Notes: generated from the letters alone by a model not told the origin. DNA of 64,000 bases from an uncultured delta proteobacterium (GCA_963712235.1 CAVQHC010000017.1:142348-206347), one strand, 5' to 3'; positions 24,796 through 59,421 are shown, counted from the stretch's first letter. Translations and numbers: made by a program.

Positions 24796-26463
24796 ATGAC
24801 TCACAGCAGTAGCCTCGACGCGGAATCGCTACGACTCGTTCTCGATTCGCTCGATGATTTCGCCAAAGCAAACCTCAGCGACGAGAAACTCCTCGAGCTC
24901 GATGAGAAGGACATCTTTCCAGAGGAGCTCGTCCGCGCGATCGGCAGCGAAGAGCTCGGAGTGCAGCTGGTGTTCATCCCCGAAGAGCACGGTGGGATGG
25001 GCGGCGGGGCCTTCGACGTGTATCGGGTCTGCGAAGCGATGGCCCGGATCGATGTCGGCCTAGCCACCGGCGTCCTGGCGACCTTTCTCGGCAGCGACCC
25101 CATCGTGTTCGGCGGGACGCCCGAGCAAAAAGAACACTGGCTGAGCCGTATCGCGGAAGAAGGTTTGCTCATGGCTTACGGGGCCACCGAACCAGCTGCC
25201 GGCAGCGACCTTGCCGCGCTCAAGACGGTGGCGGTCCCCGTCGAAAAGGATGGCAGCGTCGTTGGATACGAGATCACCGGGAACAAGCAGTGGATCTCGA
25301 ACGGCGGGTACGCCGATGTGTACACCGTGCTTGCGAAGGCACCGGGTGGTCCCAGCTGGTTTGTCGTCGAACGCGGCGCCGAGGGCTTTTCTGCGGGGAA
25401 ACCCGAGGACAAGCACGGTATCCGGCTGAGCAATACGACCGCCTTGGTTCTCGAAAACGTCTACGTCGACGCCGGTCAGCTCGTGGGGCTCGAGGAAGGC
25501 CAAGGGCTGCAGCAGGCTCAGCTGGTCTTCGGGTTCACGCGACTGATGGTGGCGGCCTTCGGGCTTGGCGCGGGCTGGGCGGCTCTCGACCGGACGATCG
25601 AATACTCGACCGAACGCATTCAAGGTGGGGCGCCGCTCTCGGAAAAGCAGGGCTACACGCACAAGCTCATCGTGCCGCATGCGGTGCGCCTGGAGGCCGC
25701 GCGAGCCTACATCGAGCAAACGGCAGAGGCCATCGACAAGGGCGGCGACGACTTGCTGAACACCGAGGGCGCGATCGCCAAATACCTCGCGAGCGAGGCG
25801 GGCAACGCCGCGGCAGACGCAGCCATTCAAGGGCACGGCGGCTACGGGTACACCAAAGAGTACATGGTCGAGAAGATCAAGCGCGACGTTCGAATCACCA
25901 CGATCTACGAGGGCACCTCCGAAATCATGGAAATGACGATCGGACGCGACCGCTGGCAGCATCACCTCAAGACCCGCGGGCAGCACTATCACGACCTCGG
26001 GCGGCGGCTCGAAGGCGTACACAGCGAGCACCCCAAGGTCGGTGCCGACATCGCGGCGCTGGCCGCACACGCCCTCGCAGAAGTCATGGAACGCGCACGC
26101 GAGAAACGTCTCACGCGCAACCAGCACGTATTGTTTCGAATCGGTGAGCTCGCCTCCTATGTCGAAGGTGCGGCGGCGTTTGCTCGACGCGCAGTCCGTG
26201 CCGAGCTCGATGAGCTCAATCCAAAGTCCCCAAGGCGATTTTCGCCGCCGGCTGTTGCGGCAATGGCGCGGGTTTTCGCGCGTGAAGCCGCGCAGCGCGT
26301 TGCCGTAGACGGCATGCGTTGGGTCATCGGCGCCGAAGCGCCGGGGAGCGCAGACGTCCCGTCGCTCGAAACGAGCGCGGGCCTGTCGAACGTTTATGCA
26401 GCCCAAGCGGGGTTGATCGAAGACATGAATCAGGTGGGGGACGCGCTTTACGAGCGCTCCTGA
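24796..26463 (+). CDS. acyl-CoA dehydrogenase family protein (555 aa, with C-terminal extension)
   Basis: Contains [37 protein letters not shown] and [14 protein letters not shown]. The ATG at 24796 ([12 protein letters not shown]...) is in frame within ORF 24628... Confidence 0.9.
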
Positions 26464-26482
26464 CCAAGCAGGGAGCCCGCAG

Positions 26483-35022: not shown

Positions 35023-35028
35023 ACGAAG

Positions 35029-38000
35029 ATGGGCAATATGACCTTCACGCGAATTGCAATCGTAAACCGCGGCGAACCTGCGATGCGATTCATCATCGCC
35101 GCGCGGGAGTACACGCAGGAGCATCGCGAGGCGCTTCACACGATCGCGCTTTACACGGATCCCGACCGCCGAGCGATGTTCGTACGCGAGGCCGACGAAG
35201 CGTACGCGCTCGGCCCTGCAACCTTCGTGACCAAGGACGGCCATCGCAAGTCGAGCTACCTCGACTACGACCGCCTCGAGCGCGCCCTCATCGAAACACG
35301 TGCCGAAGCGGTTTGGCCAGGATGGGGCTTCGTGGCCGAGCACCCCAGGTTTGCAGACCTCTGCGAACGACTCGGGCTCGTCTTCATCGGGCCGACGGGG
35401 GACATGATGCGCAAGCTGGGCGACAAGATCGCCTCCAAGCAGCTCGCAGAAAAGGCGGAGGTTCCGGTCGCACCCTGGAGCGGTGGTGAGGTGGCGACGC
35501 TCGACGATGCGCGTACGCACGCGGCGCGCCTCGGCTACCCTCTGATGATCAAGGCGACCGCAGGTGGCGGAGGCCGTGGGATCCGCCGCGTACAAAGCGA
35601 GTCCGAGCTGGCTGACGCGTTTCAAAGCGCGAGATCGGAGGCCGAGAAGTCTTTCGGAGACCCTGCGGTGTTCCTAGAGCGAATGGTGACTGGGGCGCGC
35701 CACGTCGAGGTTCAGATTATCGCGGACGACGAAGGAACGACTTGGGCGCTGGGCGTGCGCGACTGTACCGTCCAACGGCGCAACCAGAAGATTCTCGAAG
35801 AGACCCCTTCGCCGGCGCTGAGCGAGGAGCAACAGACTGAGCTCGAGCAAGCCGCAATCCGGCTGACCCAAGCGATCGGCTATCGAAACGCGGGAACGGT
35901 GGAATTCCTTTATCACCAGCCGACGCGGCAGTTCTCGTTCATGGAGGTCAACGCGCGGCTGCAGGTCGAGCACCCGGTCTCGGAGATTGTCACCGGCGCC
36001 GACCTCGTGAAGCTACAGATCCACGTCGCGCGAGGCGGCCGACTGGACGCGGTACCCCCCGTCAAGCGTGGGTACGCGATCGAAGCGCGGCTGAACGCCG
36101 AGGATCCGGAAGACAACTTCGCGCCCTCGCCTGGGCTCGTCGAACAACTTCGGCTGGCGAGCGGCCCCGGCCTGCGGGTCGATACCGGCATTGCGGAAGG
36201 CGATCGAATCCCGTCCGAATTCGATTCGATGATCGCCAAGATCATCGCCCACGGGCGCACGCGTGAGGAGGCGCTCGCCCGGCTTCGGCGGGCGCTCCTC
36301 GAAAGCGAGGTCGTGATTCGCGGGGGCGCCTCCAACAAGGGCTTTCTTCTCGGCTTGGTGGACAATCCAGCGGTTCGCTCTGGCGAGGTCGATGTGGGCT
36401 GGGTCGACCGCCTCGTCGCTGAGGGGAGGCACCTGCCCCGCGAGGGAGCGGAACTCGCCCTCCTGCAGGCTGCAATTGAAACCTATGACGCAGAGCTCGA
36501 TGTGGAGCGCGCGCAGTTCTACACCGCCGCGGCGCGAGGGCGTCCGCAGGTGGAAGACACACACGGACAGGCGATGGAGCTCACCCATGCCGGACATACC
36601 TACGAGCTCACCGTCTTTCGCCTGGGCCCAGACCGCTACCGGATCGACGTCGATGCGCAGCGCATCGAAGTCGTGGTGGAACGCTTCGAAGGCGCAGAGC
36701 GTCGGCTCCGGATCGGCAATCGGCACGCGCGAATTCAGTCGGTCGACCAGGGGCTGAGTGTCCTCGTGGAGGTCGACGGTGTGCCGCACCGCATCTCTCG
36801 AGACCGTGGCGGCCTCGTCCGTGCACCATCGCCAGCAGTCGTGGTCAATGTGCTCGTTTCGGAGGGCCAAGACGTCGCGGTTGGAGATGGGCTCGTCGTC
36901 CTCGAAGCGATGAAAATGGAAATGGTCATCGGCGCGAAGTTTGCCGGCAAGGTGCGCGAGGTCATGGTGATGAACAACGTGCAGATCGCGATCGGCGCGC
37001 CGATGTTGCTCATCGAGCCGAGCGGTGGCGAAGCCGCTTCTGCGTCGGACGAGCGCTTGAGCTTTTCCACCCTCTCGGTCGAGCAGGATCAAGACTATTC
37101 GGTCTACCGGCACAATCTAATCGAGCTCAAACGCCTAATCATGGGCTTCGACGCGGACCGTGTGGAGCTTTCGCGTGAAATCGAGGATGGCAACATCGTT
37201 ACCGCAAGCGTGGCGCCCGACGATTCTGGACGCCTTGCGCTCGAAGACCAGATCCTCAACGTCTTCGTGGATCTGTGCTCTTTGTTCCGCCGGCAGTCGC
37301 GCTACGAGGACGGGTCTGAAGACTTCGGAAAACACACCGCCGAAGAGTATTTGTTCACGTTCCTCCGCGACCTCGTCGTTCGTCGTGAAGAGGAGCTCCC
37401 GGCATCGTTCGTCTCCAAGCTTCGTAGGGCCATTGGCCACTTCGGTCTGGCCGAAATTCAGCGCAACGCCGAGCTGCAAGGGGTGCTGTTTCGGATCTGC
37501 AAAGGAAACAAGCGGATCGACGAACAGGTCGCACCAGTGCTGAGCTTGCTGCAGGGCCGCCTCGATAACATCGGCACGCTTCGCGAGGCGGTTGGAGACG
37601 ACTTCCGCGAGCTCTTGTCTCGAATGATCATCGAGACTCAGGATCGCTACCCCGCCATCCATGATCTGGCACGCGAGCTGCAGTATCACTACTTCGAGCG
37701 CCCAATTCAGGAGCGCGTCGAAAAAGAGACACTAGCCAAGGTCGATCGGATTCTCGCGCAGCTAGTCGCGGACCCGCAGGGCCCGGACAGAGCCGCACGC
37801 ATCGCAGAGCTCGTCGCCGTTCCCCAACCTCTCAAGGGGTTCATGTCGCGGCGGCTGGAGCAGGCGAGCCATGACGAACGTCTGATCATGCTCGAGACCC
37901 TCGCCCGCCGATACTACAAGATGTGCGATCTGAGGGACTTCGAACTGCTCTCCGACGGCGGAATTGACATTTCCAAGTGCTGGTATGAGTACGAAGGCAA

Positions 38001-40590
38001 GAAGATTCACTTCTTCGCCACGCACGTCGCCGGCGAGCAGCTGCCCGATGCGATTTCCGAGCTGAAGCGTCACGTCGAAGCTGCTCCAGAAGCCGACGAC
38101 GTCGTCGTAGATTTCTATGTGTTGCATCGCGACCAGCTCGAGAGCCCAGACAAGACGTCAGAGGGGCTTACGCGCCTGCTCGGAACGTTCGAGCCCGCAA
38201 GACCGATCCGTCGCGTCATCGTCTCCGTAACTGGAAGTGAAACCGGGCTCGGAGCAAACGAGTTGCAGGCGTTCACGTTTCGAATGGGTGAAGATGGCTT
38301 TCGCGAGGAGCTGATTTACCGCGGCATGCACTCTATGCTGAGCAAACGTCTGCTCTTGTGGCGCCTAAAAGACCTGAGCACAGAGCGAGTCGATTCGGCA
38401 GAAGACGTGAATCTCTATCGTGTGACCGGAAAGGACGAGCGTCTGATTTGCCTCGCCGAGGTGCGCGATCTGACGCCGGTCCGTGACGCCTCGGGCCGCG
38501 TAGTCGCCCTCCCCAACCTCGAGCGAACGCTTTCGAAGTGCCTAATTGCCATTCGACGCGAGCAGAGCACGAGAACCTCGGGAAGGCGCTTTCAATGGAA
38601 CCGAGTTCACCTCTTCCTCTGGCCGCCGCTGGACCTGAGCCAAGAAGAGATCAACGGCATCATTCACAAGCTCGCACCGGAGACGACCGGACTTGGACTC
38701 GAGCGAATCGTCGTCCAGGGGACCATTCGCAACCCAGCAAGCGGCAAGCTCGAGGAGAAGCTGCTCGACGTGTCGAATCGTGGCCGCCAGGGACTCAGCG
38801 TCCGGCTTCGCGACCTTCCAACCCATCCGATGCGGCCCCGCAGCGCGTACGAGCAAAACGTCGTCCGGTTGAGCCAGCGGGGTTTGATGCACCCGTACGA
38901 GATCATCTCCATGCTCACGCCTGGAGAGGACAGTGACGTTCAGTCGGATTTCCCGCATGGCGAGTTTCGCGAGCTCGACCTCGACGAGGCCAATCAGCTC
39001 GTCCCCGTGGAAAGGCCCCCTGGAAACAACAGCGCCAACATCATCGTCGGCCTGCTAACCAGCTTCACCGACAAGTATCCCGAAGGAATGACGCGCGTTG
39101 CGCTCTTGGGAGACCCGAGTCGAGGCATGGGCGCTCTCGCCGAACCCGAGTGCCGCCGCATCATTGCCGGCCTCGACCTCGCCGAGCAGATGCGGGTACC
39201 CTTGGAATGGTACGCAGTCTCCGCGGGCGCCAAGATTTCCATGGAAAGCGGTACGGAGAACATGGACTGGATCTCGGCGGTCTTGCGACGACTGATCGAG
39301 TTCACGCAGGCAGGGTCCGAGGTGAACGTCCTGGTCTGCGGCATCAACGTTGGCGCCCAGCCGTACTGGAACGCCGAGGCCACGATGCTCATGCACACCA
39401 AGGGCATCCTCATCATGTGCCCGGGCAGTGCGATGGTGCTCACCGGCAAGCAGGCGCTCGACTACTCGGGGGGCGTATCGGCCGAAGACAACACCGGAAT
39501 CGGCGGATACGATCGAATCATGGGGCCCAATGGTCAGGCGCAATACGCTGCGCGCGACCTCGCGGACGGCTGCCACATTCTTCTTCGTCACTACGACCAC
39601 AGCTACGTCATGCCCGGCGAACGTTTTCCGCGGCGCGCCGCGACGAAGGATGCAATCGACCGGGACGTTTGCGATTCGCCGCACGGCCATATCGGTGCTT
39701 CGACCTTTGCGACCGTGGGCGAGGTCTTCAATCCAATGACCAATCCAGGCCGAAAACGCCCCTTCGACATTCGCAAGGTAATGCGTGCCGCGACGGACCA
39801 GGACCACGACGTGCTCGAGCGATGGTATGGGATGCGCGACGCGGAGACCGCCGTGGTCTGGGACGCTCACATCGGCGGGTTTCCAGTCTGTCTGATTGGA
39901 CTCGAATCACAGCCCTTGTCCCGCCTCGGCTTCGTCCCGGCGGATGGGCCCGCAGTTTGGACGGCGGGAACCTTGTTCCCGATGTCTTCGAAGAAGGTGG
40001 CCCGAGCAATCAACGCAGCAAGCAACAACCGGCCCGTGGTCGTACTGGCGAACTTGTCCGGCTTTGACGGCTCTCCAGAGTCGTTGAGGCAGCTTCAGCT
40101 CGAGTACGGGGCCGAGATTGGCCGCGCCGTGGTCAACTTCAAGGGGCCGATGGTGTTCTTGGTGATCTCACGATACCACGGTGGGGCCTTCGTTGTGTTC
40201 TCCACCAAGTTGAATCCGTCGTTGGAAGTGTCGGCGCTCGAGCATACCTATGCCTCGGTCATCGGCGGCGCGCCGGCAGCGGCGGTGGTGTTTGCCGGTT
40301 CCGTGCGCAAGCGAACCCTCTCGGACGAGCGGATCATGGCGCTGCAGCAGGAGCTCGATCGGGCTGTCGGTGCCGAACGCGTGGCGCTCCGGGATCGCCT
40401 CGGCAAAATGGAGAAGGTCGTGCACTCGGAGAAGCTGCGCGAGGTGGCCGAGGAATTCGACAGCGTCCACAGTGTGCATCGAGCGCAAGAGGTCGGCTCC
40501 GTCCACCGAATCATTCCTGCCAGCACTCTGCGGCCGTACTTGGTGGACGCGATCGAGCGCGGGATTCAACGCGAGCAGTCTCAGGGATGA
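35029..40590 (+). CDS. single-polypeptide biotin-dependent acyl-CoA carboxylase (BC - BCCP - central region - CT), 1853 aa
   Basis: The N-terminal biotin carboxylase/ATP-grasp domain reads FTRIAIVNRGEPAMRFI...GYPLMIKATAGGGGRGIR...MEVNARLQVEHPV. The biotinyl motif is VVLEAMKMEMV (Lys codon 36913). The C-terminal carboxyltransferase reads ...GMGALAEPECRRI...VCGINVGAQPYWNAEATM...GFDGSPESLRQLQLEYGAEI... Confidence 0.9.
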   Translation: MGNMTFTRIAIVNRGEPAMRFIIAAREYTQEHREALHTIALYTDPDRRAMFVREADEAYALGPATFVTKDGHRKSSYLDYDRLERALIETRAEAVWPGWGFVAEHPRFADLCERLGLVFIGPTGDMMRKLGDKIASKQLAEKAEVPVAPWSGGEVATLDDARTHAARLGYPLMIKATAGGGGRGIRRVQSESELADAFQSARSEAEKSFGDPAVFLERMVTGARHVEVQIIADDEGTTWALGVRDCTVQRRNQKILEETPSPALSEEQQTELEQAAIRLTQAIGYRNAGTVEFLYHQPTRQFSFMEVNARLQVEHPVSEIVTGADLVKLQIHVARGGRLDAVPPVKRGYAIEARLNAEDPEDNFAPSPGLVEQLRLASGPGLRVDTGIAEGDRIPSEFDSMIAKIIAHGRTREEALARLRRALLESEVVIRGGASNKGFLLGLVDNPAVRSGEVDVGWVDRLVAEGRHLPREGAELALLQAAIETYDAELDVERAQFYTAAARGRPQVEDTHGQAMELTHAGHTYELTVFRLGPDRYRIDVDAQRIEVVVERFEGAERRLRIGNRHARIQSVDQGLSVLVEVDGVPHRISRDRGGLVRAPSPAVVVNVLVSEGQDVAVGDGLVVLEAMKMEMVIGAKFAGKVREVMVMNNVQIAIGAPMLLIEPSGGEAASASDERLSFSTLSVEQDQDYSVYRHNLIELKRLIMGFDADRVELSREIEDGNIVTASVAPDDSGRLALEDQILNVFVDLCSLFRRQSRYEDGSEDFGKHTAEEYLFTFLRDLVVRREEELPASFVSKLRRAIGHFGLAEIQRNAELQGVLFRICKGNKRIDEQVAPVLSLLQGRLDNIGTLREAVGDDFRELLSRMIIETQDRYPAIHDLARELQYHYFERPIQERVEKETLAKVDRILAQLVADPQGPDRAARIAELVAVPQPLKGFMSRRLEQASHDERLIMLETLARRYYKMCDLRDFELLSDGGIDISKCWYEYEGKKIHFFATHVAGEQLPDAISELKRHVEAAPEADDVVVDFYVLHRDQLESPDKTSEGLTRLLGTFEPARPIRRVIVSVTGSETGLGANELQAFTFRMGEDGFREELIYRGMHSMLSKRLLLWRLKDLSTERVDSAEDVNLYRVTGKDERLICLAEVRDLTPVRDASGRVVALPNLERTLSKCLIAIRREQSTRTSGRRFQWNRVHLFLWPPLDLSQEEINGIIHKLAPETTGLGLERIVVQGTIRNPASGKLEEKLLDVSNRGRQGLSVRLRDLPTHPMRPRSAYEQNVVRLSQRGLMHPYEIISMLTPGEDSDVQSDFPHGEFRELDLDEANQLVPVERPPGNNSANIIVGLLTSFTDKYPEGMTRVALLGDPSRGMGALAEPECRRIIAGLDLAEQMRVPLEWYAVSAGAKISMESGTENMDWISAVLRRLIEFTQAGSEVNVLVCGINVGAQPYWNAEATMLMHTKGILIMCPGSAMVLTGKQALDYSGGVSAEDNTGIGGYDRIMGPNGQAQYAARDLADGCHILLRHYDHSYVMPGERFPRRAATKDAIDRDVCDSPHGHIGASTFATVGEVFNPMTNPGRKRPFDIRKVMRAATDQDHDVLERWYGMRDAETAVVWDAHIGGFPVCLIGLESQPLSRLGFVPADGPAVWTAGTLFPMSSKKVARAINAASNNRPVVVLANLSGFDGSPESLRQLQLEYGAEIGRAVVNFKGPMVFLVISRYHGGAFVVFSTKLNPSLEVSALEHTYASVIGGAPAAAVVFAGSVRKRTLSDERIMALQQELDRAVGAERVALRDRLGKMEKVVHSEKLREVAEEFDSVHSVHRAQEVGSVHRIIPASTLRPYLVDAIERGIQREQSQG

Positions 40591-49199: not shown

Positions 49200-50636
49200 T
49201 CAGGGCTTGAGCTTGATGGTCATGTCGATCAGGCGTTCCTGCTTGCCCGTGTACGGCGGATAGAACCAGTGCAGGAGCGAAAACCACGGGTTTGTGAAGA
49301 CGGGGCGCATTTTGCTGAACTCCACGAAGCCCTCGTAGCCGTGGTAGTGGCCGATGCCGCTCGCGCCGACGCCACCAAACGGTAGGTCGTGTTGGGCGAC
49401 GTGGATGATGCAGTTGTTGATGGTGACGCCACCTGAAATCGTGCTGTAGAGGAGCTTGTGCTTCCGCGCGCGATCGTTGGTGAACACATAGAATCCGAGC
49501 GGCCGGTCTCGATGGGTCACGTACTCGATGGTCTCGTCCAGATCCTTGTACGTCATCACCGGGAAAAGAGGCCCGAAGATCTCTTCCTTCATGATCATCA
49601 TATCCTCGGTCACGTTGAGCACGAGGTACGGCGGGAACTTGCGGAGCACATCGTTGAACGACGCATTGGGGACCAGCGGGACGAGCTTTGCCCCCTTTGC
49701 CTCGGCATCTTCGAGCGTCATGCGCAAACGCCGATAGGCCTTGTCATCGATGACCGAGGTGTAGCTGTCGTCGTTCGTATCCGGATAGCGCTCCGCGACG
49801 AGGCGTTGTGCTGTAGAAACGAATCGATCCTCGGTGCCCTCCGGCAGGAAGAGGTAGTCGGGCGCCAAGCAGGTCTGGCCAGCGTTGACGAGCTTCGCGT
49901 ACATGATTCGCGAGGCTGCCTCGTCGATGTCGAAATCGTCACAGACGATCGTCGGCGACTTGCCGCCGAGCTCGAGCGTGACCGGCGTCAGATTCTCGGC
50001 GGCCGATTGCATGACCGTACGACCCACGTCCGCGGAGCCCGTGAAGATGATGTGGTCGTACGGCAGCGTGGAGAAGTCCTGAGCGCGAACGCCCGGCAGA
50101 ATCGCGATGACCTCTTCTGGAAACACCTCGCCAAACTTGTCGGCGAGCAGGCGGCAAAGGTGCTGCGAGTTGCTTGCCATCTTGATCATCGCCCGGTTGC
50201 CGGCGGCCAAGACGCTGACGAGAGGACTCAAGGTGAGGAACAGCGGGTAGTTCCAAGGCGAGACGATCCCCACGACGCCCTTGGGCTGTGGGATGAGTCG
50301 GTTGGAGCCGGTCGCAAAGAGCCACGAAATAGGCCGGCGCTGCGGCTTCATCCATTTGCGAAGCTTCTTCCGCGTGTGACGCAGCCCGTCGATGACGGGA
50401 AAGATCTCGAGGATCTTCGACTCTTCGGCACAGCGGTGCCCAAAGTCCTGGGAAATCGCCTCGACGATCGCGTCGGTGTTTTCCAGCAGGATTCGCTCGA
50501 GCGCGTCCAGGCGCGCCTTTCGTTCCTGGAGACTCGGGTATGGGTCGCGCAAGTACGCTTCGCGTTGGAGTTTGTAGACGCGCTGCGCCTCGTTTTCGAT
50601 GGACTGGATCGAGCGGATTTGAGCGGTTTGGGCCAT
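49200..50636 (-). CDS. aldehyde dehydrogenase (class-3 / coniferyl-aldehyde-dehydrogenase-like)
   Basis: Contains VSPWNYP, ELGGKSP and the catalytic Cys in NAGQTCLAPDY, plus EEIFGPLFPV. Confidence 0.9.
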   Translation of the reverse strand: MAQTAQIRSIQSIENEAQRVYKLQREAYLRDPYPSLQERKARLDALERILLENTDAIVEAISQDFGHRCAEESKILEIFPVIDGLRHTRKKLRKWMKPQRRPISWLFATGSNRLIPQPKGVVGIVSPWNYPLFLTLSPLVSVLAAGNRAMIKMASNSQHLCRLLADKFGEVFPEEVIAILPGVRAQDFSTLPYDHIIFTGSADVGRTVMQSAAENLTPVTLELGGKSPTIVCDDFDIDEAASRIMYAKLVNAGQTCLAPDYLFLPEGTEDRFVSTAQRLVAERYPDTNDDSYTSVIDDKAYRRLRMTLEDAEAKGAKLVPLVPNASFNDVLRKFPPYLVLNVTEDMMIMKEEIFGPLFPVMTYKDLDETIEYVTHRDRPLGFYVFTNDRARKHKLLYSTISGGVTINNCIIHVAQHDLPFGGVGASGIGHYHGYEGFVEFSKMRPVFTNPWFSLLHWFYPPYTGKQERLIDMTIKLKP

Positions 50637-50701: not shown

Positions 50702-52603
50702 TCACCCGTCAGCGACTTTGGACTCGAGCTCCATCCAGCGCGTCATCATTTGGTCGATCTGCGCTTGGAGCTTGCCCTGGCGCGCCACGATCGCCGGGAC
50801 TTCTTCAGCGCGATCGGCGTATAGCGCCGGGTCGTTCAGGAGGGCTTCGACCTCCCCGGCCTCCGTTTCGGCTCGTTCGATCTCACCCGGGAGCCGCTGG
50901 AGCTCCTGCTTTTCCTTGTATGAGAGCTTGATGCCTTTGCCGGTCGAAACGCTTTTGGGCTTGGGGCCAGCCTTGTCGGCGCTTCGCTTACGCTCTGCCC
51001 GACCTGCCGCGCGCTGATCCCGATAGTCGCTGTAGTTCCCCGCATAGGCGATGACCCGGCCGTCTCCTTCGAAGGCGAGAATCTTCGTGGCGACGCGGTC
51101 GAGGAAATACCGATCGTGGCTGACGATGAGCGCGGTTGAATCGGAGGCCACCAGCATTTCTTCGAGCGCCGCGAGCGTGGCCACATCGAGGTCGTTCGTA
51201 GGTTCGTCGAGGACGAGTACGTTGGCCGGCGCGAGCAACAACTTTGCCAAGGCGACGCGCGCTCGCTCACCTCCGGACAGCGAGGACACCTTGTCCCGCG
51301 TGCGATGTGGCGCGAAGAGGAAGCGCTTCAGATAGCTCCGGATGTCGATCGAGCGGCCTTGGAAAGTCACTTGCGGCCTGTCGGGCGCAACGTTCTGCTG
51401 AACGGATTCATCTTCGATGAGACCGCTTCTGCCCTGGTCGAAGTAGGCGAGCTTCGTATTCGCTCCAATGACGACGCGTCCCTGCGTAGGTTCGAGCTCG
51501 CCTAGGAGGACGCGCAGCAAGGTGGTCTTACCGGCGCCGTTCGGACCGACAATCCCGAGACGATCCCCGCGCGACAAGATCAGGTCCAGGGAGTGGACGA
51601 GCTCGAGCTCGCCGAGCTGCACCCCGAGGCCGTGCGCTTCGAGCACGGTTCCGCCGAGCCGTTTGTTCTGCGCCGCGAATCTTGCGACCTGCTCGGCCTT
51701 GGGACCGGTGGCATCGCGAAGCGCCTCGGCACGACCGACGCGCGCTTTCGACTTGCTGGTTCGGGCCTTGGGAGACCGGCGGAGCCATTCGAGCTCGGTG
51801 CGGAGGAGGTTCTGACGGTTTGCCTCGGCGCGATCGGCATGGGCCAATCTGTCTGCTTTGGCCTCCAAATACGCGTGCCACCCGCCGTCGTAGCTGTACA
51901 CCTTGCCTTGATCGATTTCGAGGGTTCGGTTGACCACTCGATCGAGGACGTAGCGGTCATGCGTGATCAGAACGAGCGCACCGCGGTATTGTTCGCGCAG
52001 GTAGGTCTCGAGCCATTCGATGGTGTCGGCGTCGAGGTGGTTGGTCGGCTCATCGAGAATCGCCAAGCTGGGCTCCTCGACCAGGAGCCGCGCGAGCGCA
52101 ACGCGTCGCCGCTCGCCGCCGCTCATCTCATCGACGCTCCGATTCATTTCAACGAGGCCGAGTTGCTGGAGGAGCACATCGACGCGAAGGCTGTTTTCCC
52201 AGCCGCCAAGACGTTCGACTTCCTGGGCAGCGGCCGCCTGTGGCTCCGTGTACGCTTCCCATCCCGGTTCTTGCGCGGCGATCAGCCGGCTGAGCTCCTC
52301 GTGTCTCTCGAAGGCCTCGGCCCAGGCACCGAGCCCGTCGAGGACGACGTCCCTCGCATTGCGGCCGCCAGGCAGGTCGGGTTCTTGCGATAAATAGCGA
52401 ATGGTCGCTTCGCGGCGGCGGGCGACACGCCCCGCGTCAGCCTGCTCTTCACCGACCAAGATGCGCGCCAAAGTCGACTTGCCCGAGCCGTTGTTCCCGA
52501 CGAGCCCAACTCGCTCCCCTTCGTGAACCGAAAGGCCGACGCCATCGAGAAGTCGGGTCTCGCCGTAGGCCTTGCAAAGGCCTTCAGCCACCAAGATAGG
52601 CAT
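50702..52603 (-). CDS. ABC-F family ATPase (Uup-like), two ABC domains
   Basis: Two Walker A motifs (GNNGSGKST; GPNGAGKTT), two LSGGE signatures and a C-terminal coiled coil. The ATG at 52603 (MPILVAEGL...) is preferred over the ORF-track start at 52774. Confidence 0.9.
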   Translation of the reverse strand: MPILVAEGLCKAYGETRLLDGVGLSVHEGERVGLVGNNGSGKSTLARILVGEEQADAGRVARRREATIRYLSQEPDLPGGRNARDVVLDGLGAWAEAFERHEELSRLIAAQEPGWEAYTEPQAAAAQEVERLGGWENSLRVDVLLQQLGLVEMNRSVDEMSGGERRRVALARLLVEEPSLAILDEPTNHLDADTIEWLETYLREQYRGALVLITHDRYVLDRVVNRTLEIDQGKVYSYDGGWHAYLEAKADRLAHADRAEANRQNLLRTELEWLRRSPKARTSKSKARVGRAEALRDATGPKAEQVARFAAQNKRLGGTVLEAHGLGVQLGELELVHSLDLILSRGDRLGIVGPNGAGKTTLLRVLLGELEPTQGRVVIGANTKLAYFDQGRSGLIEDESVQQNVAPDRPQVTFQGRSIDIRSYLKRFLFAPHRTRDKVSSLSGGERARVALAKLLLAPANVLVLDEPTNDLDVATLAALEEMLVASDSTALIVSHDRYFLDRVATKILAFEGDGRVIAYAGNYSDYRDQRAAGRAERKRSADKAGPKPKSVSTGKGIKLSYKEKQELQRLPGEIERAETEAGEVEALLNDPALYADRAEEVPAIVARQGKLQAQIDQMMTRWMELESKVADG

Positions 52604-52616
52604 GTGCTTCGGTTCC

Positions 52617-53699
52617 TCAGGGGTTTGTGAATAGGTCGTCGCCGAAGCTCGCGGAGACGGGGACGCACCATACGCTGATGCCGTCGAGATCGTCGAATGT
52701 CCGGTTCTCTGGAAGTTGGGCGTAGACTGATTCCGAGCCATCGTAGCCGCCGGCGCGGCGCAAATCCTCTTCACTCATCGAAAAGCCACCGGTGTAGTCA
52801 CCAGCGAGGCCGCCGTAAAAACGGACATCGATGCCGGTACCATCGTAGACGAAATCGTCCACACGCACTGTGCAGTCGTCGACGATCACCGCTGTGCCCG
52901 AGACCTGGTGAGCGAAGGTTCGAAGCTCCGCGACCTGTCCAATCTTGCTGTGGGTGGCGTCGCATGGACGCAGCCCGCTGGTCCCACCCCCGCCTCCGGT
53001 GCCGCCCGTCCCCCCTTCGTTTGCAAGTACGAATGCGACGAGGTCGACGAGCTCTTCATCGCTGAGCCGATCTTCGGCCCAAAAGGGCATCCGGCCGCCC
53101 GTGAGTCCTTCGTAGACGGCACTGTTGCTGGCACCGCTGGTTCTCACGCGACGCCCAATCGTCTCGGCGTCTAGAAGTGAGCCGCGAAGGGCGAGCGCAC
53201 GTTCGGTTCCGCTGGCGTCGACGCCGTGGCAGACGACGCAAGATGCGTTGAACAAGTCTTGGCCCGCCATTTCGTCGCCGCCGCCGAGCTCCGTCGGCGG
53301 GCTGACGATTTGATAACTCAGCGGAGGCGCGGGCGAGCTCCCGGCCGCATCCGTCAGGTATTCCGACAGGGCGAGCCACCGTGGGTCCGAGTCGCTGAAT
53401 GCCGGAGCCGCCATCCATTCCACGCGACAGCTATTGACGGCATCGAGCAGCGCATCGAGCTGGCCGTTTTTGAATGACGGTCGATTCGCCGCGTCCCCGA
53501 TAGGGTGGCCGGGGCGCCGAATCCCGTCTGGGGTGGGCTCCTCGAGCGCGTGGCAGCTTGCGCAGGCGAAGGTGTTTCCGTCGCTGTGCGGCTCGAGGTA
53601 GAGCGCCTCGCCTGACACTGGGGAGTCGGTTCCGGAATCGCTGCAGCCCAGGATCCCGGTCGCCACCATCAAGAACAGTGGTAAACCAAAGCGTTTCAT
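52617..53699 (-). CDS. lipoprotein: diheme c-type cytochrome fused to a DM13-like domain
   Basis: Signal MKRFGLPLFLMVATGILGC (ATG 53699). Two CxxCH motifs (CASCH, CVVCH). The C-terminus ...FAHQVSGTAVIVDDCTVRVDDFVYDGTGIDVRFYGG...LDGISVWCVPVSASFGD resembles DM13. Confidence 0.7.
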   Translation of the reverse strand: MKRFGLPLFLMVATGILGCSDSGTDSPVSGEALYLEPHSDGNTFACASCHALEEPTPDGIRRPGHPIGDAANRPSFKNGQLDALLDAVNSCRVEWMAAPAFSDSDPRWLALSEYLTDAAGSSPAPPLSYQIVSPPTELGGGDEMAGQDLFNASCVVCHGVDASGTERALALRGSLLDAETIGRRVRTSGASNSAVYEGLTGGRMPFWAEDRLSDEELVDLVAFVLANEGGTGGTGGGGGTSGLRPCDATHSKIGQVAELRTFAHQVSGTAVIVDDCTVRVDDFVYDGTGIDVRFYGGLAGDYTGGFSMSEEDLRRAGGYDGSESVYAQLPENRTFDDLDGISVWCVPVSASFGDDLFTNP

Positions 53700-54057
53700 G
53701 AGGCGACCGTACCCACGATTTCGCACGATCGGCAAGGCCGCCCATCCGGCGAGTCCTCTGTTGACGAGGCGTATCATAGGCGAACGCCGGGGGTCGTGCC
53801 GACGCTTCCGGCTGCACAGCAGGGGGATACCCTCCTCGTCGGGTGTCCACTGATTCAGAGCCGGTTCCGTCAATGCCTTGAACCATGAAATTGGTTCGAT
53901 CTCGTACCGCAACCGCCCTGTTAATCTCTAGGCATAATCCACGTAGAATGGCCTATCGGATGCCAGGAGATTGAGCCGCCATTGTCCTTGAACATCGATC
54001 CCGGGACATCCTATGCTGCGGAGTCAAGACGAACATTGAACAGGAGTCTCATGTCTT

Positions 54058-55281
54058 ATGATCACTAACACGCTACACCTGACGCCACGCAATTTCGTTT
54101 CGCTCATGGTCCTGATCCTGCTGTCGGCCTGCTCGAGTAATGATGGCGATAACTCACTCACCGTTACCTCCTACAATATGGGGCTAGCACTGAATTTCGT
54201 TCCCTACACACAGGAGCGGCTGGTCGCCAATGAAACCCTCGTCCAGACTCTTGAAAGCGACGTAATCTGCTTTCAGGAAGTGTGGCTGGACGAGCAAGTC
54301 GACGCGATAATCAACGCCATCTCGGATGATTTTCCTTATGTCTATCTTGTTGACCCTGAGCAAATATTTTCAGAGACGGCAGCATGTACCAACGCCGAGG
54401 TCGCGGATCTCGCAGATTGTGCCAACACAGAGTGCCCCGGCCAGTCAGGCTCCGACCTGGTAGGCTGCGTGACCGCAAGCTGCGGCTCCTTCTTCGCCGC
54501 CCTCAGCGCAACATGCTTTGATGCTATCATCGGCAGTGTCGGTATTCCGAATATCACTGTTGAAGCGCTGGTGGCGGCGGTCACCCAGCCTGCCGGAAAA
54601 TTTGCCTTTGACGGCTCGCTCGGGCTGATCCTCGCTTCACGTTACGAATTAAGGAATACGGAGTTCCAGGACTTCATCGATAACTCCACTGGTAACCATC
54701 GTGGCGCCCTCTATGCAGAAATTGAGGTCAATCAACAAACACAGGTTCTGGGCTGCACACACCCTACGGCCAACCTGTCAGCGACTATTGATTACCCAAG
54801 CTCGGGGAATTTCGACTCCTGGGAGGCTGAGAACCGCTTCATGCAGGAACAGATGATCGCCTTTGTTGACAACAAGGCCGGCGACAATCCGATCTACTTC
54901 GCAGGTGACTTCAATTGCAGTATTGGCAATGCCAGCAACGGAGTCGATGAGGATTTTCCCGACAACTGCCAGTTGTGGTTGGATGACGGTTTCGCAGACC
55001 CCGTTGCCGAACAACTAGGCTGCTCTTTCTGTTCGGAAGAAAACCTGGTCCTCAACCCGCAACAGGTTGCCGGCGGCGGCGGCGGAGAAGGCAATACCCT
55101 CCTCGACCACATTTTCGTGAAGAATGTCGAGAATGCGAGCGCGATAACTGCCGAACGCGTTTTTGATGAGCCGTTGGAGATCGAGGCGCTTGACCCTCCA
55201 CAGGAGTTGCCCGTCGAGGAGTCGCCGTTGCTGACTCACCCCTCCGATCACTTTGGGGTACGGATAGCTGTTCCTCTATAG
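54058..55281 (+). CDS. endonuclease/exonuclease/phosphatase (EEP) family lipoprotein
   Basis: Signal plus lipobox LILLSAC. Contains LTVTSYNMG...DVICFQEVW and a C-terminal PSDHFGV. The gene is about 50-53% GC in lines I counted, well below its neighbours. Confidence 0.75.
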   Translation: MITNTLHLTPRNFVSLMVLILLSACSSNDGDNSLTVTSYNMGLALNFVPYTQERLVANETLVQTLESDVICFQEVWLDEQVDAIINAISDDFPYVYLVDPEQIFSETAACTNAEVADLADCANTECPGQSGSDLVGCVTASCGSFFAALSATCFDAIIGSVGIPNITVEALVAAVTQPAGKFAFDGSLGLILASRYELRNTEFQDFIDNSTGNHRGALYAEIEVNQQTQVLGCTHPTANLSATIDYPSSGNFDSWEAENRFMQEQMIAFVDNKAGDNPIYFAGDFNCSIGNASNGVDEDFPDNCQLWLDDGFADPVAEQLGCSFCSEENLVLNPQQVAGGGGGEGNTLLDHIFVKNVENASAITAERVFDEPLEIEALDPPQELPVEESPLLTHPSDHFGVRIAVPL

Positions 55282-55299: not shown

Positions 55300-55695
55300 T
55301 CAGGTGAAGATCCGAAGCGCAACGGCGATCTGAGCGCCGAAGCCGGCGAGATACGCGACGGTTCGAATTCCTGGCAGGCCGAAGGTGATCGCGGGGAAGT
55401 GAACGAGTCGTGCCCAGAAATAGACTTGGGTCGCGGCCAAGATGCCGGGCTCCTCGCCCTTGCCCATCGCGAAGGCCACGAGGACCAAGGTCGCGAAGAC
55501 GACGAGGTTCTCGACAGCGTTGTAGTGCCCGCGCTTCGCTCGACGCGCCCAAAGGGCCTGCCGGAGCTCGTCTTCGGGGTCGACTGGTTTCAAGGCTCCC
55601 AAAATGCCCAAGGACACCATGCGCTCCAAGACGTACGGAACCCAAAACAGGGCCGTCATCAGTGCCGAAGCTGCTAGCCATTCGAGTGCGCTCAT
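55300..55695 (-). CDS. MAPEG-family membrane protein (microsomal glutathione-S-transferase-like)
   Basis: 131 aa with four hydrophobic helices. The RAKRGHYNAVENLVVFA motif region is typical of MAPEG. Confidence 0.65.
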   Translation of the reverse strand: MSALEWLAASALMTALFWVPYVLERMVSLGILGALKPVDPEDELRQALWARRAKRGHYNAVENLVVFATLVLVAFAMGKGEEPGILAATQVYFWARLVHFPAITFGLPGIRTVAYLAGFGAQIAVALRIFT

Positions 55696-55774
55696 CGAAA
55701 CCTCCCGTTCAAAATGCCTGCGGCAGCGCCCACGCTATCCCAGCCGAGACCTGGGTGGCAAGGCTGCTCAGGCC

Positions 55775-57199
55775 CTAAAACGGATACGACTGCAGGGTGT
55801 CGAGGGCCATGGTCATGAGCATCTGCACCGCTTCGGGGCTGTCGAGGGGGATGCCTGCAGCGCCGCCCCCGTAGATCGCGGAGCTTTGCGGCTTGGCGTC
55901 GCGGTGCTCGTGGGCGTAGGCGACCGCCTCCGCGAGGTCCACTGCGAAGGCGTCGGCAATTCCGGTCCGTGTTTGGGGCCGGGTCACGCACATGTGAATT
56001 GCGGACGGGTGCTGCTGCCCGTTGAATCGCCAGCCACGGGTCTTCATGAAGTCGTTGACGTGGTAGATGTCGAATTCATCCGACCGAAACGAGAAGCAGA
56101 ATGTCGGTGAGCCCATCAACGCAAGCTCGGGGAAGCTCTTGACTGAGCCCTGCATCTCGAACGAGGTTTCGAAGATCTGCTTGGCGTAGCGCAGATACCC
56201 TTCTTTGCCATAGCGCACCATGGCGGCCCAGGTCGCCGCGATGAGGCCGCCGGAACGGCTGCCGGCCAGCCCATTGGACGCGTAGATACCGCCCTTCCAG
56301 CTCGGCTCGATGTAGTACTGATGCTTGCGGAAAGTCGCGTCGCGGTAGACCACGACCGAGGTGCCCTTGAGGCCGTAGCCGTACTTGTGGGTGTCGGCGG
56401 AGATCGAGGTCACGCCTGGCAAACGGAAATCAAAGGCGGGGATGTCATAGCCGAGCGCTTCGCCCCACGGCAGGATGAAACCGCCAAGACAGCCGTCGAC
56501 GTGCAGGCCGATGCCGTGCTGCACCGCCAAGTCCGAGAGTGCATCGATGGGGTCGATGGTGCCGTACGGGTAATTGCCCGCCGAGCCGACGAGGGCGATG
56601 GTCCTGTCGTCGATCTGGTCGCGCACGAAGTCCACGTCGACCAGGGTGCTGACGGGATCGGTCGGTGCGTGGACGACCTCGATCCCGAGCAGTTGCGCGC
56701 CTTTGCGGAAGGCCGGGTGAGCGGTGTCCGGGACGATGACCTTGGGACGATCGATGTCACGCTCCTCGCGAGCCTTGTCGCGGTAGATGAGCAAGGGGTT
56801 GATGATGCTCTCGGTGCCGCCAAAACCGACGGCGCCGCAAGCCTCGTGAGCGGGGTTCTGCTTTTTGACCTCGTCGCCGTGCATCAGGTCGAGGGTCATC
56901 GCGATGATGTCCGACTCGAACCGCGTCATGCTGGGGCAGATGTCGCGCTGCAGCGAGTTCACGTAAGAAAAAAGCGCGCAGACCGCGTTCAGGAAATCGT
57001 AGTGCTCGTGGTCGCCGCTGTACATCGTGCCCGAGCATCGGCCGTTTTCCCAGGCTTCGTCCTCTTTGGCCGCGACGGAGCGGAGCTCTTCGAGGATCGC
57101 CTCGGTCGAACGCCCCAACGAGGGGAAGTCGCGGATCACACCGTGGCTTTCCGCGTAGGGGTAGAGGCCTCGCATCAAGGATTCAATCGTGTCGGTCAT
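55775..57199 (-). CDS. PLP-dependent sphingosine-1-phosphate-lyase-like enzyme (group II decarboxylase fold)
   Basis: GFGGTESI and VTSISADTHKYGYGLKGTSVVVYRD...PSWKGGIYASNGLAGSRSGG parallel the eukaryotic S1P lyase active-site region (SADTHKYG..KG... GGIYASP..AGSRPG). Confidence 0.85.
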   Translation of the reverse strand: MTDTIESLMRGLYPYAESHGVIRDFPSLGRSTEAILEELRSVAAKEDEAWENGRCSGTMYSGDHEHYDFLNAVCALFSYVNSLQRDICPSMTRFESDIIAMTLDLMHGDEVKKQNPAHEACGAVGFGGTESIINPLLIYRDKAREERDIDRPKVIVPDTAHPAFRKGAQLLGIEVVHAPTDPVSTLVDVDFVRDQIDDRTIALVGSAGNYPYGTIDPIDALSDLAVQHGIGLHVDGCLGGFILPWGEALGYDIPAFDFRLPGVTSISADTHKYGYGLKGTSVVVYRDATFRKHQYYIEPSWKGGIYASNGLAGSRSGGLIAATWAAMVRYGKEGYLRYAKQIFETSFEMQGSVKSFPELALMGSPTFCFSFRSDEFDIYHVNDFMKTRGWRFNGQQHPSAIHMCVTRPQTRTGIADAFAVDLAEAVAYAHEHRDAKPQSSAIYGGGAAGIPLDSPEAVQMLMTMALDTLQSYPF

Positions 57200-58758
57200 G
57201 GCTCACTCCCAACGTTCAGCGCTCGAAACACGGAACGATTCTTCCTGAACGCGCGGACGAACTGCGCAAACATCGAATCATAGCGCGCGGCGAGCTCTGG
57301 CCGCGGCGCATAGGTCGCCGCAACCGGTACGCTCGCCTGCATCTCTTCCAGGCTGAGCTCGCCTAGATGGTGAAAGCCGAGCAGCGCAAGTCCGCGGCAT
57401 GCGGCGTACTCCGGCTCGCGGAGTTGCTCTACTGGAAGCTGGAGGATGTCGGCAAAGATCTGCGCCCAGATCGACGAGAGTGCGCCTCCGCCGTAAAACC
57501 GGATGCGCGAAATGTCCCGCTTGGCAAAGCGAGCGACCCGCCCTTGAACCCATCGGAGGTTGAAGGCCACACCCTCGAGCACCGCCCGGCCTAGATGCTC
57601 GCGTGTCGTTTGAAGGGAAAGATTCAAAAAGCCGCCGCGTACCTTGCCGTCTTCGGCGGGCGTCACCGAACCGGTCAGCCAGGGTAGAAAGAGGACGCCG
57701 CCACTGCCCGGGTCGATCGCCGCGACCGCGCGAGCCAAAACCGAGAACGGCTCGGCGAGGCTATGGTCACCGAAGTCGTCCTTCGCGAAGACGAGACGCT
57801 CGAGGAAGTAGTCCAAGGCGCCGCCACCGATTCCCGCTTCGGCCATGACGAAGTATCGGCCGGGGAACGGGGATGGCATGCTCACCAGCGAGTTCAGGGT
57901 ATCGGTTCTCTTGAAGTCGACGTGGGTGACACAGACTCCGGTCGTGCCGATCGAGATGCCGGCGTGGTCGCCGGCAAATGCCGCTGCGCCAACGCCGCCG
58001 GCCTGCGTGTCGTTGATCGAAGGAAAGACGAGCGTGTCTTCTGCAAGCCCGAGCCGTTCGGCGACCTCGGGGAGCACCGGCCCGAGCGGCTCGTCGACGG
58101 GAACGAGCTTCGGCAGCTTTCGGGGATCGAGGCCGGACCATTCGAGCAAGGTCGGGTGGTAGACCACATCGGAACGCCGGTTGTCGGTCAGCAACATCAG
58201 GAAGCTGGAGCAACGGTTGGTGACCGGCCGGCCCGATAGGCGCATCGCCACATAGTCCATGGGCTCGACGAACGTTGCCGTCCGTTCGTAGACGTCGGGG
58301 CGCGCGAGCTTGAGCCAGCGCATGTGGGCAAGGGAGTCCGCGCCCGAGTCGAGCGGAGGGATGCCGTGAATCTGCACCCAGCGCCCCATTTGATAGAGAT
58401 TCGGCTTCATGCGCTGGCCGCCCGGCAGCTTCTTCAGGCGCGCCGGCGCGCCGCGCTGATCCATCCACACGACCATGTTGGCGGTGGGACGACCGTCGCG
58501 GTCTACTGGAACGATCGAGGAGTATTGGCTCGCGCAGGCGATGCCGCGGACCTCGCGCCGGTTCGGCAGGGATGCGAGTGCCTGGTCGGCGGCATCGAGG
58601 ACGGTCTGCCAGACCTGCTCTGCATCTTGCTCGGCGCCGCCGTCTGGGGTGTGAATGGTCTCAATCGATCCGCTTCCGGTGCCGAGCAGCGTCCCGTGGC
58701 GATCGACGACGGCTGCCTTGACGTTCGAGGTGCCAAGATCGATGGCTAGAATCGGCAA
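57196..58758 (-). CDS. FGGY-family kinase (xylulokinase/glycerol-kinase-like)
   Basis: The N-terminus ILAIDLGTSNVKAAVVD plus a GGGALS region. TTG start with a GGAGGTGG RBS. The stop overlaps the lyase start (ATGA at 57196-57199). Confidence 0.85.
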   Translation of the reverse strand: MPILAIDLGTSNVKAAVVDRHGTLLGTGSGSIETIHTPDGGAEQDAEQVWQTVLDAADQALASLPNRREVRGIACASQYSSIVPVDRDGRPTANMVVWMDQRGAPARLKKLPGGQRMKPNLYQMGRWVQIHGIPPLDSGADSLAHMRWLKLARPDVYERTATFVEPMDYVAMRLSGRPVTNRCSSFLMLLTDNRRSDVVYHPTLLEWSGLDPRKLPKLVPVDEPLGPVLPEVAERLGLAEDTLVFPSINDTQAGGVGAAAFAGDHAGISIGTTGVCVTHVDFKRTDTLNSLVSMPSPFPGRYFVMAEAGIGGGALDYFLERLVFAKDDFGDHSLAEPFSVLARAVAAIDPGSGGVLFLPWLTGSVTPAEDGKVRGGFLNLSLQTTREHLGRAVLEGVAFNLRWVQGRVARFAKRDISRIRFYGGGALSSIWAQIFADILQLPVEQLREPEYAACRGLALLGFHHLGELSLEEMQASVPVAATYAPRPELAARYDSMFAQFVRAFRKNRSVFRALNVGSEP

Positions 58759-58770
58759 ACCACCTCCGGA

Positions 58771-59421
58771 CTACTGTTCGATGCAATAGAGGCCTAGCAA
58801 AGTGGAGCAGGCCGGAGTGATGTTCTCGGTCCAGGTCGACGTCGTCGAGTTGCTCGCGCCGCATAGGGCGACGACGGCCATGGAGTCCGTCGTGAAAGCT
58901 GCGCAGTCACTGCTGGGATACGAGTCGCCCGTGGCGAGGGTTCCGGTCCAAATCTCGCCGCGGCGGAACACGCCGTTCGCGTCCAGGTCGATCGGAGCGA
59001 GGATCGAGCCGTCGACGAGATCGGCCCAGTCGTCGGCCACCCTGGTCCCGTCCACGAGGACGTACGGGCCGCTGGCTTGGGTTACGCGATTCGCGACAGG
59101 CGAGGCGATCGTCGAGAGCCAGGCTTTGAACTCGCCGTCGAGACCTGCGGCCAGGGCTTGCGCCGCGCAGATCGCATCGGCGCCGGCGATGCCGCCGAGG
59201 TTCGCGCTCTGGTTGGTGTCGGTTCGAAAGATCCGCCGCTCGGCCGTGCCGGCGTCAGGGCCAGCGTCAGGGCCAGCGTCAGGGCCAGCGTCAGGGCCGG
59301 CGTCAGGGCCAGCGTCAGTGGCTGCGTCAGGCCCAGCGCCGGTGACGGCATCTGTGCCCGTACAGGCGGGGGATGCGGTCATGGCAAGGGCGAGAAGGAG
59401 GTTGAGCACGCTGCGTTTCAT
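58771..59421 (-). CDS. lipoprotein with (DAGP)n linker and endostatin-like / DUF1554-type domain
   Basis: Signal [20 protein letters not shown] (ATG 59421). [29 protein letters not shown]...SDCAAFTT...[13 protein letters not shown] aligns by eye with endostatin ([32 protein letters not shown]...SYCETWRT...SCHHAYIVLCIEN), including all four Cys. Confidence 0.6.
   Translation of the reverse strand: [216 protein letters not shown]
59249..59330. repeat. 12-bp tandem repeat (GCGTCAGGGCCR) encoding (DAGP)n on the minus strand
   Basis: Read directly: GGCGTCAGGGCCAGCGTCAGGGCCAGCGTCAGGGCCAGCGTCAGGGCCGGCGTCAGGGCCAGCGTCAG... Confidence 0.9.

Follow-up and report, generated by a model that had tools for sequence, protein, structure and literature searches.

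In eukaryotes, the logic of a kinase followed by a sphingosine-1-phosphate (S1P) lyase is classical, whereas an FGGY-fold kinase as the conserved operon partner of such a lyase in bacteria is not present in the searchable literature. No FGGY kinase tied to an S1P lyase or to sphingoid bases was found in the full-text literature searched, which mostly excludes subscription journals. A 2018 review discusses no bacterial sphingosine kinase, and none was found in the later literature searched. This leaves the source of the phosphorylated substrate of bacterial S1P lyases without an explanation. Here we describe a locus from an uncultured delta proteobacterium (GCA_963712235.1, CAVQHC010000017.1:142348-206347; the whole stretch of 64,000 nucleotides analysed is hereafter called the window), in which the gene for an FGGY-family kinase overlaps the gene for an S1P-lyase-type enzyme. 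On balance, we consider it probable that the kinase phosphorylates a 2-amino-1,3-diol, most probably a sphingoid base, and that the coupled lyase cleaves the product.

Crystal structures of bacterial S1P lyases (S1PLs) exist, and such enzymes have been described in Burkholderia. S1PL2021 cleaves S1P in vitro and its K271A mutant is inactive; the Burkholderia enzymes act on S1P with a KM of ~50 uM and a kcat of 0.008-0.015 s-1; a yeast dpl1 mutant is rescued by the B. thailandensis orthologues, and roles in secretion and virulence have been reported (PMC5234717, PMC6148460). A hydrophobic substrate funnel was described by the depositors of the orthologous lyases. It was also reported that Burkholderia has sphingolipid genes of the polyketide synthase (PKS) type and might make as well as degrade S1P, with no kinase being named (Peters et al. 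2025, PMC12134224). A kinase beside the Burkholderia S1P lyases is not mentioned in the accessible papers on those enzymes.

Based on homology, the lyase of the window is assigned to the S1P-lyase family (EC 4.1.2.27) of pyridoxal 5'-phosphate (PLP) enzymes of fold type I. Among solved structures, it matched B. pseudomallei S1PL2021 (5k1r) over its full length with 63% identity (E = 1.3e-204), followed by the Symbiobacterium enzyme (StSPL, 3mad, E = 1e-120), human SGPL1 (4q6r, E = 1e-96) and yeast Dpl1 (3mc6, E = 4e-87). The S1P lyases of Trypanosoma and Legionella were also among the solved relatives, and decarboxylases first appeared at E = 1e-26. Membership was judged by the SxDTHK motif with the PLP Schiff-base lysine, a second lysine six residues on and an active-site tyrosine, and all of these were found. 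The motif SADTHKYGYGLKG, including K272 and K278, and the residue Y60 were invariant in an alignment of twelve diverse homologues (A1), and K272 aligned with K271 of S1PL2021. The roles of K278 and Y60 are presumably those known from StSPL and Dpl1p. The close match to the S1P lyase active-site region, noted in the preliminary description of this DNA, is thus borne out. Neither a signal peptide nor a membrane anchor was found in the lyase, and the kinase likewise has no signal peptide.

The kinase showed Pfam matches to FGGY_N (114.6 bits, cut-off 28.8) and FGGY_C (86.9 bits, cut-off 27) and no diacylglycerol kinase (DAGK)-type catalytic domain, as expected from its earlier placement in the FGGY family rather than in the DAG-kinase-like fold. 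Our claim is therefore that the protein works like a sphingosine kinase, not that it is a member of that family. An AlphaFold2 (AF2) model built with 27 homologues reached a pLDDT of 85.9, and a Foldseek search gave TM scores of 0.75-0.82 to xylulokinase, gluconate kinase and glycerol kinase at 19-24% identity (0.82 for the xylulokinase/gluconate kinase structures 3ll3 and 3gbt, at 21-24%); the identity to any solved structure was at most 24%. The catalytic Asp D250 lies in NDTQAG, the phosphate-1 motif reads DLGT..K, and the adenosine motif is GGG. Both kinase alignments (A3 and A5) show D7, G9, K14, D250 and G424-G425 without variation; G423 is invariant only in A3, and T10 is fully conserved in A5 and almost so in A3. 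The protein is accordingly predicted from its sequence to be an active FGGY enzyme, whose specificity is uncharacterised.

Automatic annotations label this kinase a xylulokinase. However, it missed all of the NCBIfam equivalogs compared (XylB, GntK, GlpK, LsrK, FucK, AraB and RhaB); XylB was the best match with 240.5 bits against a cut-off of 380.25, and the others were lower. The Burkholderia orthologue of the kinase likewise remained below the equivalog cut-offs. The subfamily conserves the motifs SQYSSxVPVD and DNR, and we take the SQYSS region to correspond to the substrate-site GQMHG in XylB and NQRET in GlpK. The best characterised FGGY structure scored 124 bits against the window kinase, compared with 264-850 bits for the lyase-paired kinases. 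When a library holding 1.84 billion representative proteins was compared with the kinase, 1476 matched at E <= 1e-30, and only ~70 of them lay above roughly 260 bits, from which the score range of the lyase-linked kinases extends upward.

In the window, a head-to-tail run of four genes on the minus strand comprises a secreted protein, the FGGY kinase, the lyase and a MAPEG-family protein (Table 1). The stop codon of the kinase and the start codon of the lyase share the ATGA reported earlier, which is present in the sequence and is the predicted basis of translational coupling between the two genes. All of the coordinates given previously, including those of the aldehyde dehydrogenase (ALDH), hold.

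The frequency with which the two genes occur together was examined from both sides. In the lyase-side survey, GTDB (one genome per species) was scanned with the lyase alignment and the best 80 loci were taken; in the kinase-side survey, metagenome contigs were scanned with the kinase alignment, giving another 80 loci. Pairs were counted by tblastn, and neighbour genes were obtained with a GC3-weighted gene caller. Taxa are given as labelled in the database records, and most loci come from metagenome-assembled genomes (MAGs). An FGGY kinase adjoined the lyase in 63 of the 80 lyase-side loci, was absent from eight (no kinase despite flanks of at least 3.5 kb) and could not be sought in nine, so that 63/71 testable loci carried the pair. 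The two genes were on the same strand in 62/63 pairs and within 150 nt of each other in 52/63, the order being kinase-first in 39 and lyase-first in 23. These pairs were labelled Myxococcota, Actinomycetota (mostly Acidimicrobiia), Chloroflexota and Acidobacteriota, and further ones Hydrogenedentota, Binatota, Desulfobacterota and Gammaproteobacteria, at least eight phyla in all. On the kinase side, a lyase adjoined in 56/80 contigs and was absent from four, and 20 were untestable because of contig ends, i.e., 56/60 testable contigs contained the pair.

About 20 partners in the kinase-side survey were long lyases (500-518 aa, 39-47% identical to the window lyase), which bear the N-terminal extension and the SGAVYHGD motif of the Symbiobacterium enzyme. 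Since such StSPL-type lyases are also paired with a kinase, the pairing spans two lyase clades. Of three further kinases examined, each ~57% identical to that of the window, two stood in pairs within otherwise unrelated contexts, and one was alone. Over ~118 pairs, the junction was a 4-nt stop/start overlap in 24 and a gap of 0-30 nt in a further 39, and larger gaps mostly held an inserted gene. We estimate the chance adjacency of an FGGY gene and the lyase at well under 1%, assuming that only a handful of the several thousand genes in a genome are of the FGGY type, and the pairing, being conserved in both surveys, is far beyond chance. No DAG-kinase-type or other kinase, whose presence as a non-orthologous substitute would have lent strong support, was found beside the lyase in the FGGY-less loci, and a lyase protein search of a plasmid collection gave only matches at 35% identity or less. 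The preliminary description had suggested such a survey of co-occurrence, and its outcome is strongly positive.

The pair also occurs at the Burkholderia S1P lyases themselves. In B. thailandensis (CP004382.1, L087:5175-11422), an FGGY kinase gene (549 aa) is followed by an S1PL gene, two unrelated genes on the opposite strand and another S1PL gene. The second of these lyases shares 90% identity with 5k1r, while the identity between this kinase and that of the window is 50%. Between the two lyases lie a secreted 299-aa protein without a Pfam match, in which bulb-lectin-like QxDGxLVxY repeats were read by eye, and a 119-aa open reading frame (ORF). Two related species have richer clusters. That of Paraburkholderia oxyphila (L089) contains genes for a HisN-like phosphatase, the lyase, a major facilitator superfamily (MFS) protein, an ALDH, an AraC protein, the FGGY kinase, DUF1329 and DUF1302. 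That of Burkholderia paludis (L090) contains genes for FGGY kinase, HisN-like phosphatase, DUF1329, DUF1302, RND/MMPL, BNR, lyase, MFS and acyl-CoA synthetase. The DUF1329/DUF1302/RND/BNR set is associated with the uptake of hydrophobic substrates.

Based on these data, we suggest the following pathway. Its core would be a two-gene cytoplasmic module of kinase and lyase. The substrate of the FGGY kinase would be a free 2-amino-1,3-diol, which would receive a phosphate from ATP at its primary (C1) hydroxyl; sphingoid long-chain bases (for example sphinganine, phytosphingosine or sphingosine) are the most probable candidates. The PLP-dependent lyase would then cut the C2-C3 bond, and the resulting fatty aldehyde and phosphoethanolamine would enter general metabolism. 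The FGGY enzyme would thus be a non-homologous replacement for the DAG-kinase-fold sphingosine kinases of eukaryotes. The coupling of the two genes is well supported by the two-way survey, the variable gene order, the tight junctions and the Burkholderia pairs, and kinase and lyase very probably belong to one pathway. It is likely that the lyase receives its phosphorylated substrate from the kinase, because no other role accounts for a dedicated kinase next to an enzyme that requires a 1-phosphate. A sphingoid long-chain base as this substrate is favoured slightly, since orthologous lyases act on S1P, the accessory genes have a lipid flavour and no transporter is required; the absence of a conserved transporter would fit a membrane-permeant amphiphile. 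The earlier proposal that a non-canonical FGGY kinase supplies the lyase is strongly supported by the conserved pairing, which includes the Burkholderia S1PLs. Gene layout, family assignment, catalytic residues and the pairing itself are observed directly, whereas the supply of the lyase by the kinase and a long-chain base as the substrate are inferred from comparison.

Besides the partner gene, no neighbour was broadly conserved across the survey loci, and several recurred. In many loci of the proteobacterial type, and in some myxococcal ones, a histidinol-phosphatase (HisN)-like phosphatase of the inositol monophosphatase (IMPase) family (267 bits to TIGR02067, cut-off 275) was encoded between the kinase and the lyase. 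This gene stood between or beside the pair in L022, L024, L025, L028, L031, L104-L108, L116, L117, L124, L134 and L135, as well as in L089 and L090. In loci of the proteobacterial type, it forms a third recurrent part of the module, which the window lacks, and its product may hydrolyse phosphoethanolamine or the base-1-phosphate. An ALDH gene was found inside the kinase-lyase pair in five loci (four of Acidimicrobiia and that of P. oxyphila). Other recurrent neighbours encoded acyl-CoA dehydrogenases, short-chain dehydrogenases/reductases (SDRs), TetR regulators and alpha/beta hydrolases. Directly 3' of the lyase, one Hydrogenedentota and one Acidimicrobiales locus (L021:11445-13757 and L073:10907-13366) carry PvdQ-like long-chain N-acyl amidases of the penicillin-amidase family, which might feed the pathway by deacylating ceramide or N-acyl amines. 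The HisN-like phosphatase, the ALDHs, the acyl-CoA dehydrogenases and synthetase, the PvdQ-like amidases and the DUF1302/DUF1329/RND/BNR set are in keeping with a chemistry of amino-alcohol phosphates and lipids. A Pfam census of 75 operon-like neighbours contained neither sugar transporters nor isomerases. In a Binatia locus with no adjacent kinase (L036:11599-13104), genes for a TetR regulator and for a member of the fatty-acid-hydroxylase family PF04116, to which sphingolipid C4-hydroxylases belong, come after the lyase.

The same two steps could also act, as the preliminary description had allowed for a phospho-amino-polyol, on a non-sphingolipid substrate, namely a soluble or short-chain 2-amino-1,3-diol or an amino-polyol (serinol-like, threoninol-like or an amino-deoxy-alditol), with the formation of phosphoethanolamine and a short aldehyde. 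We regard this, the main rival, as rather unlikely, and several observations speak for it and weigh against a sphingoid base. To our knowledge, every characterised FGGY kinase uses small polar substrates, i.e., sugars or polyols, and we know of none for a lipid or amino alcohol; the Foldseek neighbours of the window kinase are all sugar or glycerol kinases as well. The HisN-like phosphatase, as a phosphatase of small amino-alcohol phosphates, and the MFS protein recur in the proteobacterial versions and would suit a soluble substrate equally well. In addition, the kcat of the Burkholderia S1PLs on S1P is low (only 0.015 s-1), so that C18 S1P may not be the native substrate. Two further points count against the proposed module as such: the partner was missing nearby at eight lyase loci and four kinase loci, and the neighbour annotation consists of our own gene calls in MAG contigs. 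On the other hand, the orthologous lyases do take C18 S1P and a hydrophobic funnel was described for them, no sugar or polyol transporter or isomerase recurs by the pair, and the extra neighbours are enzymes of lipid and aldehyde metabolism or related proteins (ALDH, acyl-CoA dehydrogenase, acyl-CoA synthetase, the PvdQ-like acylase and DUF1302/DUF1329/RND).

If the kinase were instead an ordinary sugar kinase (xylulokinase or gluconokinase) sharing no pathway with the lyase, its automatic xylulokinase labels and the rank of XylB as the best NCBIfam match would be easily understood. However, the XylB score (240 bits) is far under the cut-off of 380, no xylose isomerase or sugar transporter recurs, and the adjacency found in 63/71 and 56/60 testable loci extends over many phyla, in both gene orders and with overlapping codons; owing to these conservation data, such a reading is close to refuted and in our opinion highly improbable. 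It seems hardly credible, too, that the lyase is a secreted effector directed against the S1P of a host, a role put forward for Burkholderia and Legionella, and works without a bacterial kinase. The published secretion and virulence roles of the Burkholderia enzymes (PMC5234717, PMC6148460) would agree with this, but the organism of the window is an environmental bacterium of the Polyangiales type whose lyase has no signal peptide, the pair is widespread in free-living lineages of soils, sediments and waters, and the Burkholderia lyase genes too keep a kinase alongside. Finally, the lyase-like protein matches Pfam Pyridoxal_deC and, more weakly, the NCBIfam models for MfnA and glutamate decarboxylase, which might point to a group II amino-acid decarboxylase. 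The NCBIfam scores are below the cut-off (209 vs 299 bits), while the matches to proven S1P lyases reach E = 1e-204 and 63% identity over the full length, and we give this assignment very little credence. A sphingoid base phosphorylated by the FGGY kinase and cleaved by the lyase thus remains the reading that we prefer.

The features of the locus are listed in Table 1.

Table 1. Features of the kinase-lyase locus and its surroundings (positions counted from the first letter of the window).
Feature	Coordinates	Strand	Basis or remark
FGGY-family kinase, 520 aa	57196..58758	-	TTG start; FGGY_N and FGGY_C Pfam matches
S1P-lyase-type PLP enzyme, 474 aa, short soluble Burkholderia type	55775..57199	-	homology to 5k1r
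ATGA stop/start overlap (kinase TGA, lyase ATG)	57196..57199	-	sequence read
GGAGG ribosome-binding site, 4 nt 5' of the kinase TTG	58763..58767	-	sequence read
MAPEG-family membrane protein, 131 aa	55300..55695	-	Pfam MAPEG; own GGGAGG
Secreted Endostatin/DUF1554-like protein	58771..59421	-	stop 12 nt before the kinase start
EEP-family lipoprotein	54058..55281	+	Pfam Exo_endo_phos, 41 bits; canonical LLSAC lipobox
Class-3-like ALDH	49200..50636	-	matches to 1ad3 and 4qgk

The MAPEG gene begins exactly 79 nt after the lyase stop, the distance noted before. Its small product is covered as a whole by the Pfam match (residues 6-130, 60.2 bits, cut-off 23.4) and shows a weak similarity to MGST1 (E = 7e-4). 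A role of this protein in detoxifying the 2-enal product is speculative. A MAPEG gene was found 3' of the lyase only in L007, L018, L092, L093 and L094. In L092, a 335-aa gene on the opposite strand lies between the two, so that co-transcription of lyase and MAPEG is not obligatory.

The protein encoded upstream of the kinase, which the preliminary description does not mention, has a signal peptide and a possible lipobox of non-canonical sequence (SPAC); its Endostatin/DUF1554-like domain follows a perfect low-complexity linker, (GPDA)n. Its mechanically defined ORF reaches 59739, and the ATG at 59421 is the likely start. It was found 5' of the kinase only in L007, L092, L093, L094 and L100. 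The EEP (endonuclease/exonuclease/phosphatase family) gene is convergent with the MAPEG gene, as had been stated, with 18 nt between their stops, and has counterparts in the same position in L018, L092 and L093. When the EEP profile (A4) was compared with the PDB, B. cereus sphingomyelinase ranked first at a non-significant level (2ddr, E = 0.058; 2uyr, E = 0.1), and a single-sequence AF2 model was unusable (pLDDT 32.7); the lipoprotein is possibly sphingomyelinase-like.

The MAPEG, upstream secreted and EEP proteins were confined to the closest Polyangiales relatives, with a kinase identity of at least 78% (L007, L018, L092-L094 and L100), and were missing from most relatives at 70-83% identity (L008-L013 and L095-L103). 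The MAPEG and EEP genes noted previously are placed as described, and their conservation does not go beyond this narrow group. The ALDH matched class-3 ALDH 1ad3 with 270 bits and human fatty aldehyde dehydrogenase 4qgk with 258 bits. Its class and its place ~5 kb away agree with the preliminary description; its link to the module was rejected, since no relative has a syntenic counterpart near the lyase. Neither the MAPEG protein nor the secreted proteins on the two flanks nor the distant ALDH belongs to the conserved mechanism; all of them are specific to the lineage.

A kinase-less variant of the lyase locus was seen in four related Acidimicrobiia loci (L067, L070, L074 and L076). An EEP gene lies 5' of the lyase in L067, L070 and L074, and in L076 it is found ~9 kb off on the other strand. 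The stop codon of the lyase is overlapped by a DinB/mycothiol-S-transferase-like gene (200 aa). The EEP and DinB genes of this variant are a curious echo, as a non-homologous parallel, of the EEP and MAPEG (thiol transferase family) genes of the window.

The closest matches of the kinase and the lyase were MAG proteins labelled Polyangiales or Myxococcota, and the remaining window is myxobacterial in character, with Ser/Thr kinases, a PEGA domain and a TIGR02266 PilZ protein. A scan for promoters and terminators gave counts at the shuffle level. The ORFs of the window that were scanned included no serine-palmitoyltransferase-like or alpha-oxoamine synthase gene. Two genes with no evident link to either separate the ALDH from the module; one encodes a fusion of cytochrome c and DM13 domains (52617-53912, minus strand), the other an ABC-F (Uup/EttA-like) ATPase (50702-52774, minus strand). 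Farther away, a PKS-like or polyunsaturated fatty acid (PUFA)-synthase-like cluster occupies 24628-40590 on the plus strand. It encodes an acyl-CoA dehydrogenase (24628-26463), a 1918-aa KS-AT-KS/CLF-ACP protein (26483-32239), and a KR-DH protein (32062-35022). The last gene (35029-40590) is unusual in that biotin carboxylase, BCCP and carboxyltransferase are fused in its 1853-aa product.

In a wider sense, the FGGY subfamily could be the missing bacterial sphingoid-base kinase and, together with the lyase, form a widespread and ancient route of long-chain-base degradation or detoxification, to which the Burkholderia lyases would belong rather than being primarily host-directed effectors; for this broad proposal, we see the arguments as evenly balanced. 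The operon-linked FGGY kinase is in any case a concrete and cheaply testable candidate for the substrate supply. If it acts as proposed, a specificity for lipids or amino alcohols would be new to the FGGY family, whose known substrates are all sugars and polyols. Thousands of proteins annotated as 'xylulokinase' or 'decarboxylase' would then be relabelled, and the gene pair would serve as a marker of microbial sphingoid-base turnover in soils, sediments and waters. The contribution of the Burkholderia S1P lyases to infection would also deserve a second look.

The proposed module shares with the eukaryotic exit pathway (Lcb4/Lcb5 or SPHK1/2, then Dpl1 or SGPL1) the same two steps and a homologous lyase. 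Unlike in that pathway, the kinase of the window has the FGGY (actin-like ATPase) fold instead of the DAG-kinase fold, the lyase is soluble, without an endoplasmic reticulum (ER) membrane anchor, and the two genes form an operon. The response of Pseudomonas aeruginosa to sphingosine (SphR, SphA, SphBCD and ceramidase) is likewise a bacterial handling of free sphingoid bases (PMC5150637), but it employs unrelated enzymes, with no kinase or lyase step described, and would differ in its chemistry. The window kinase resembles XylB, FGGY-type gluconokinase and GlpK in its two Pfam domains, its fold (TM 0.82), its catalytic Asp and its motifs for ATP binding, whereas its partner gene encodes a PLP lyase rather than an isomerase or dehydrogenase. 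Burkholderia S1PL2021/S1PL2025 (5k1r) belong to the same short lyase clade as the window enzyme, with 63% identity and a conserved PLP lysine, and are adjoined by a kinase of the same FGGY subfamily at 50% identity. They differ in that two lyase copies are split by two unrelated genes, and those enzymes have been interpreted as secreted virulence factors.

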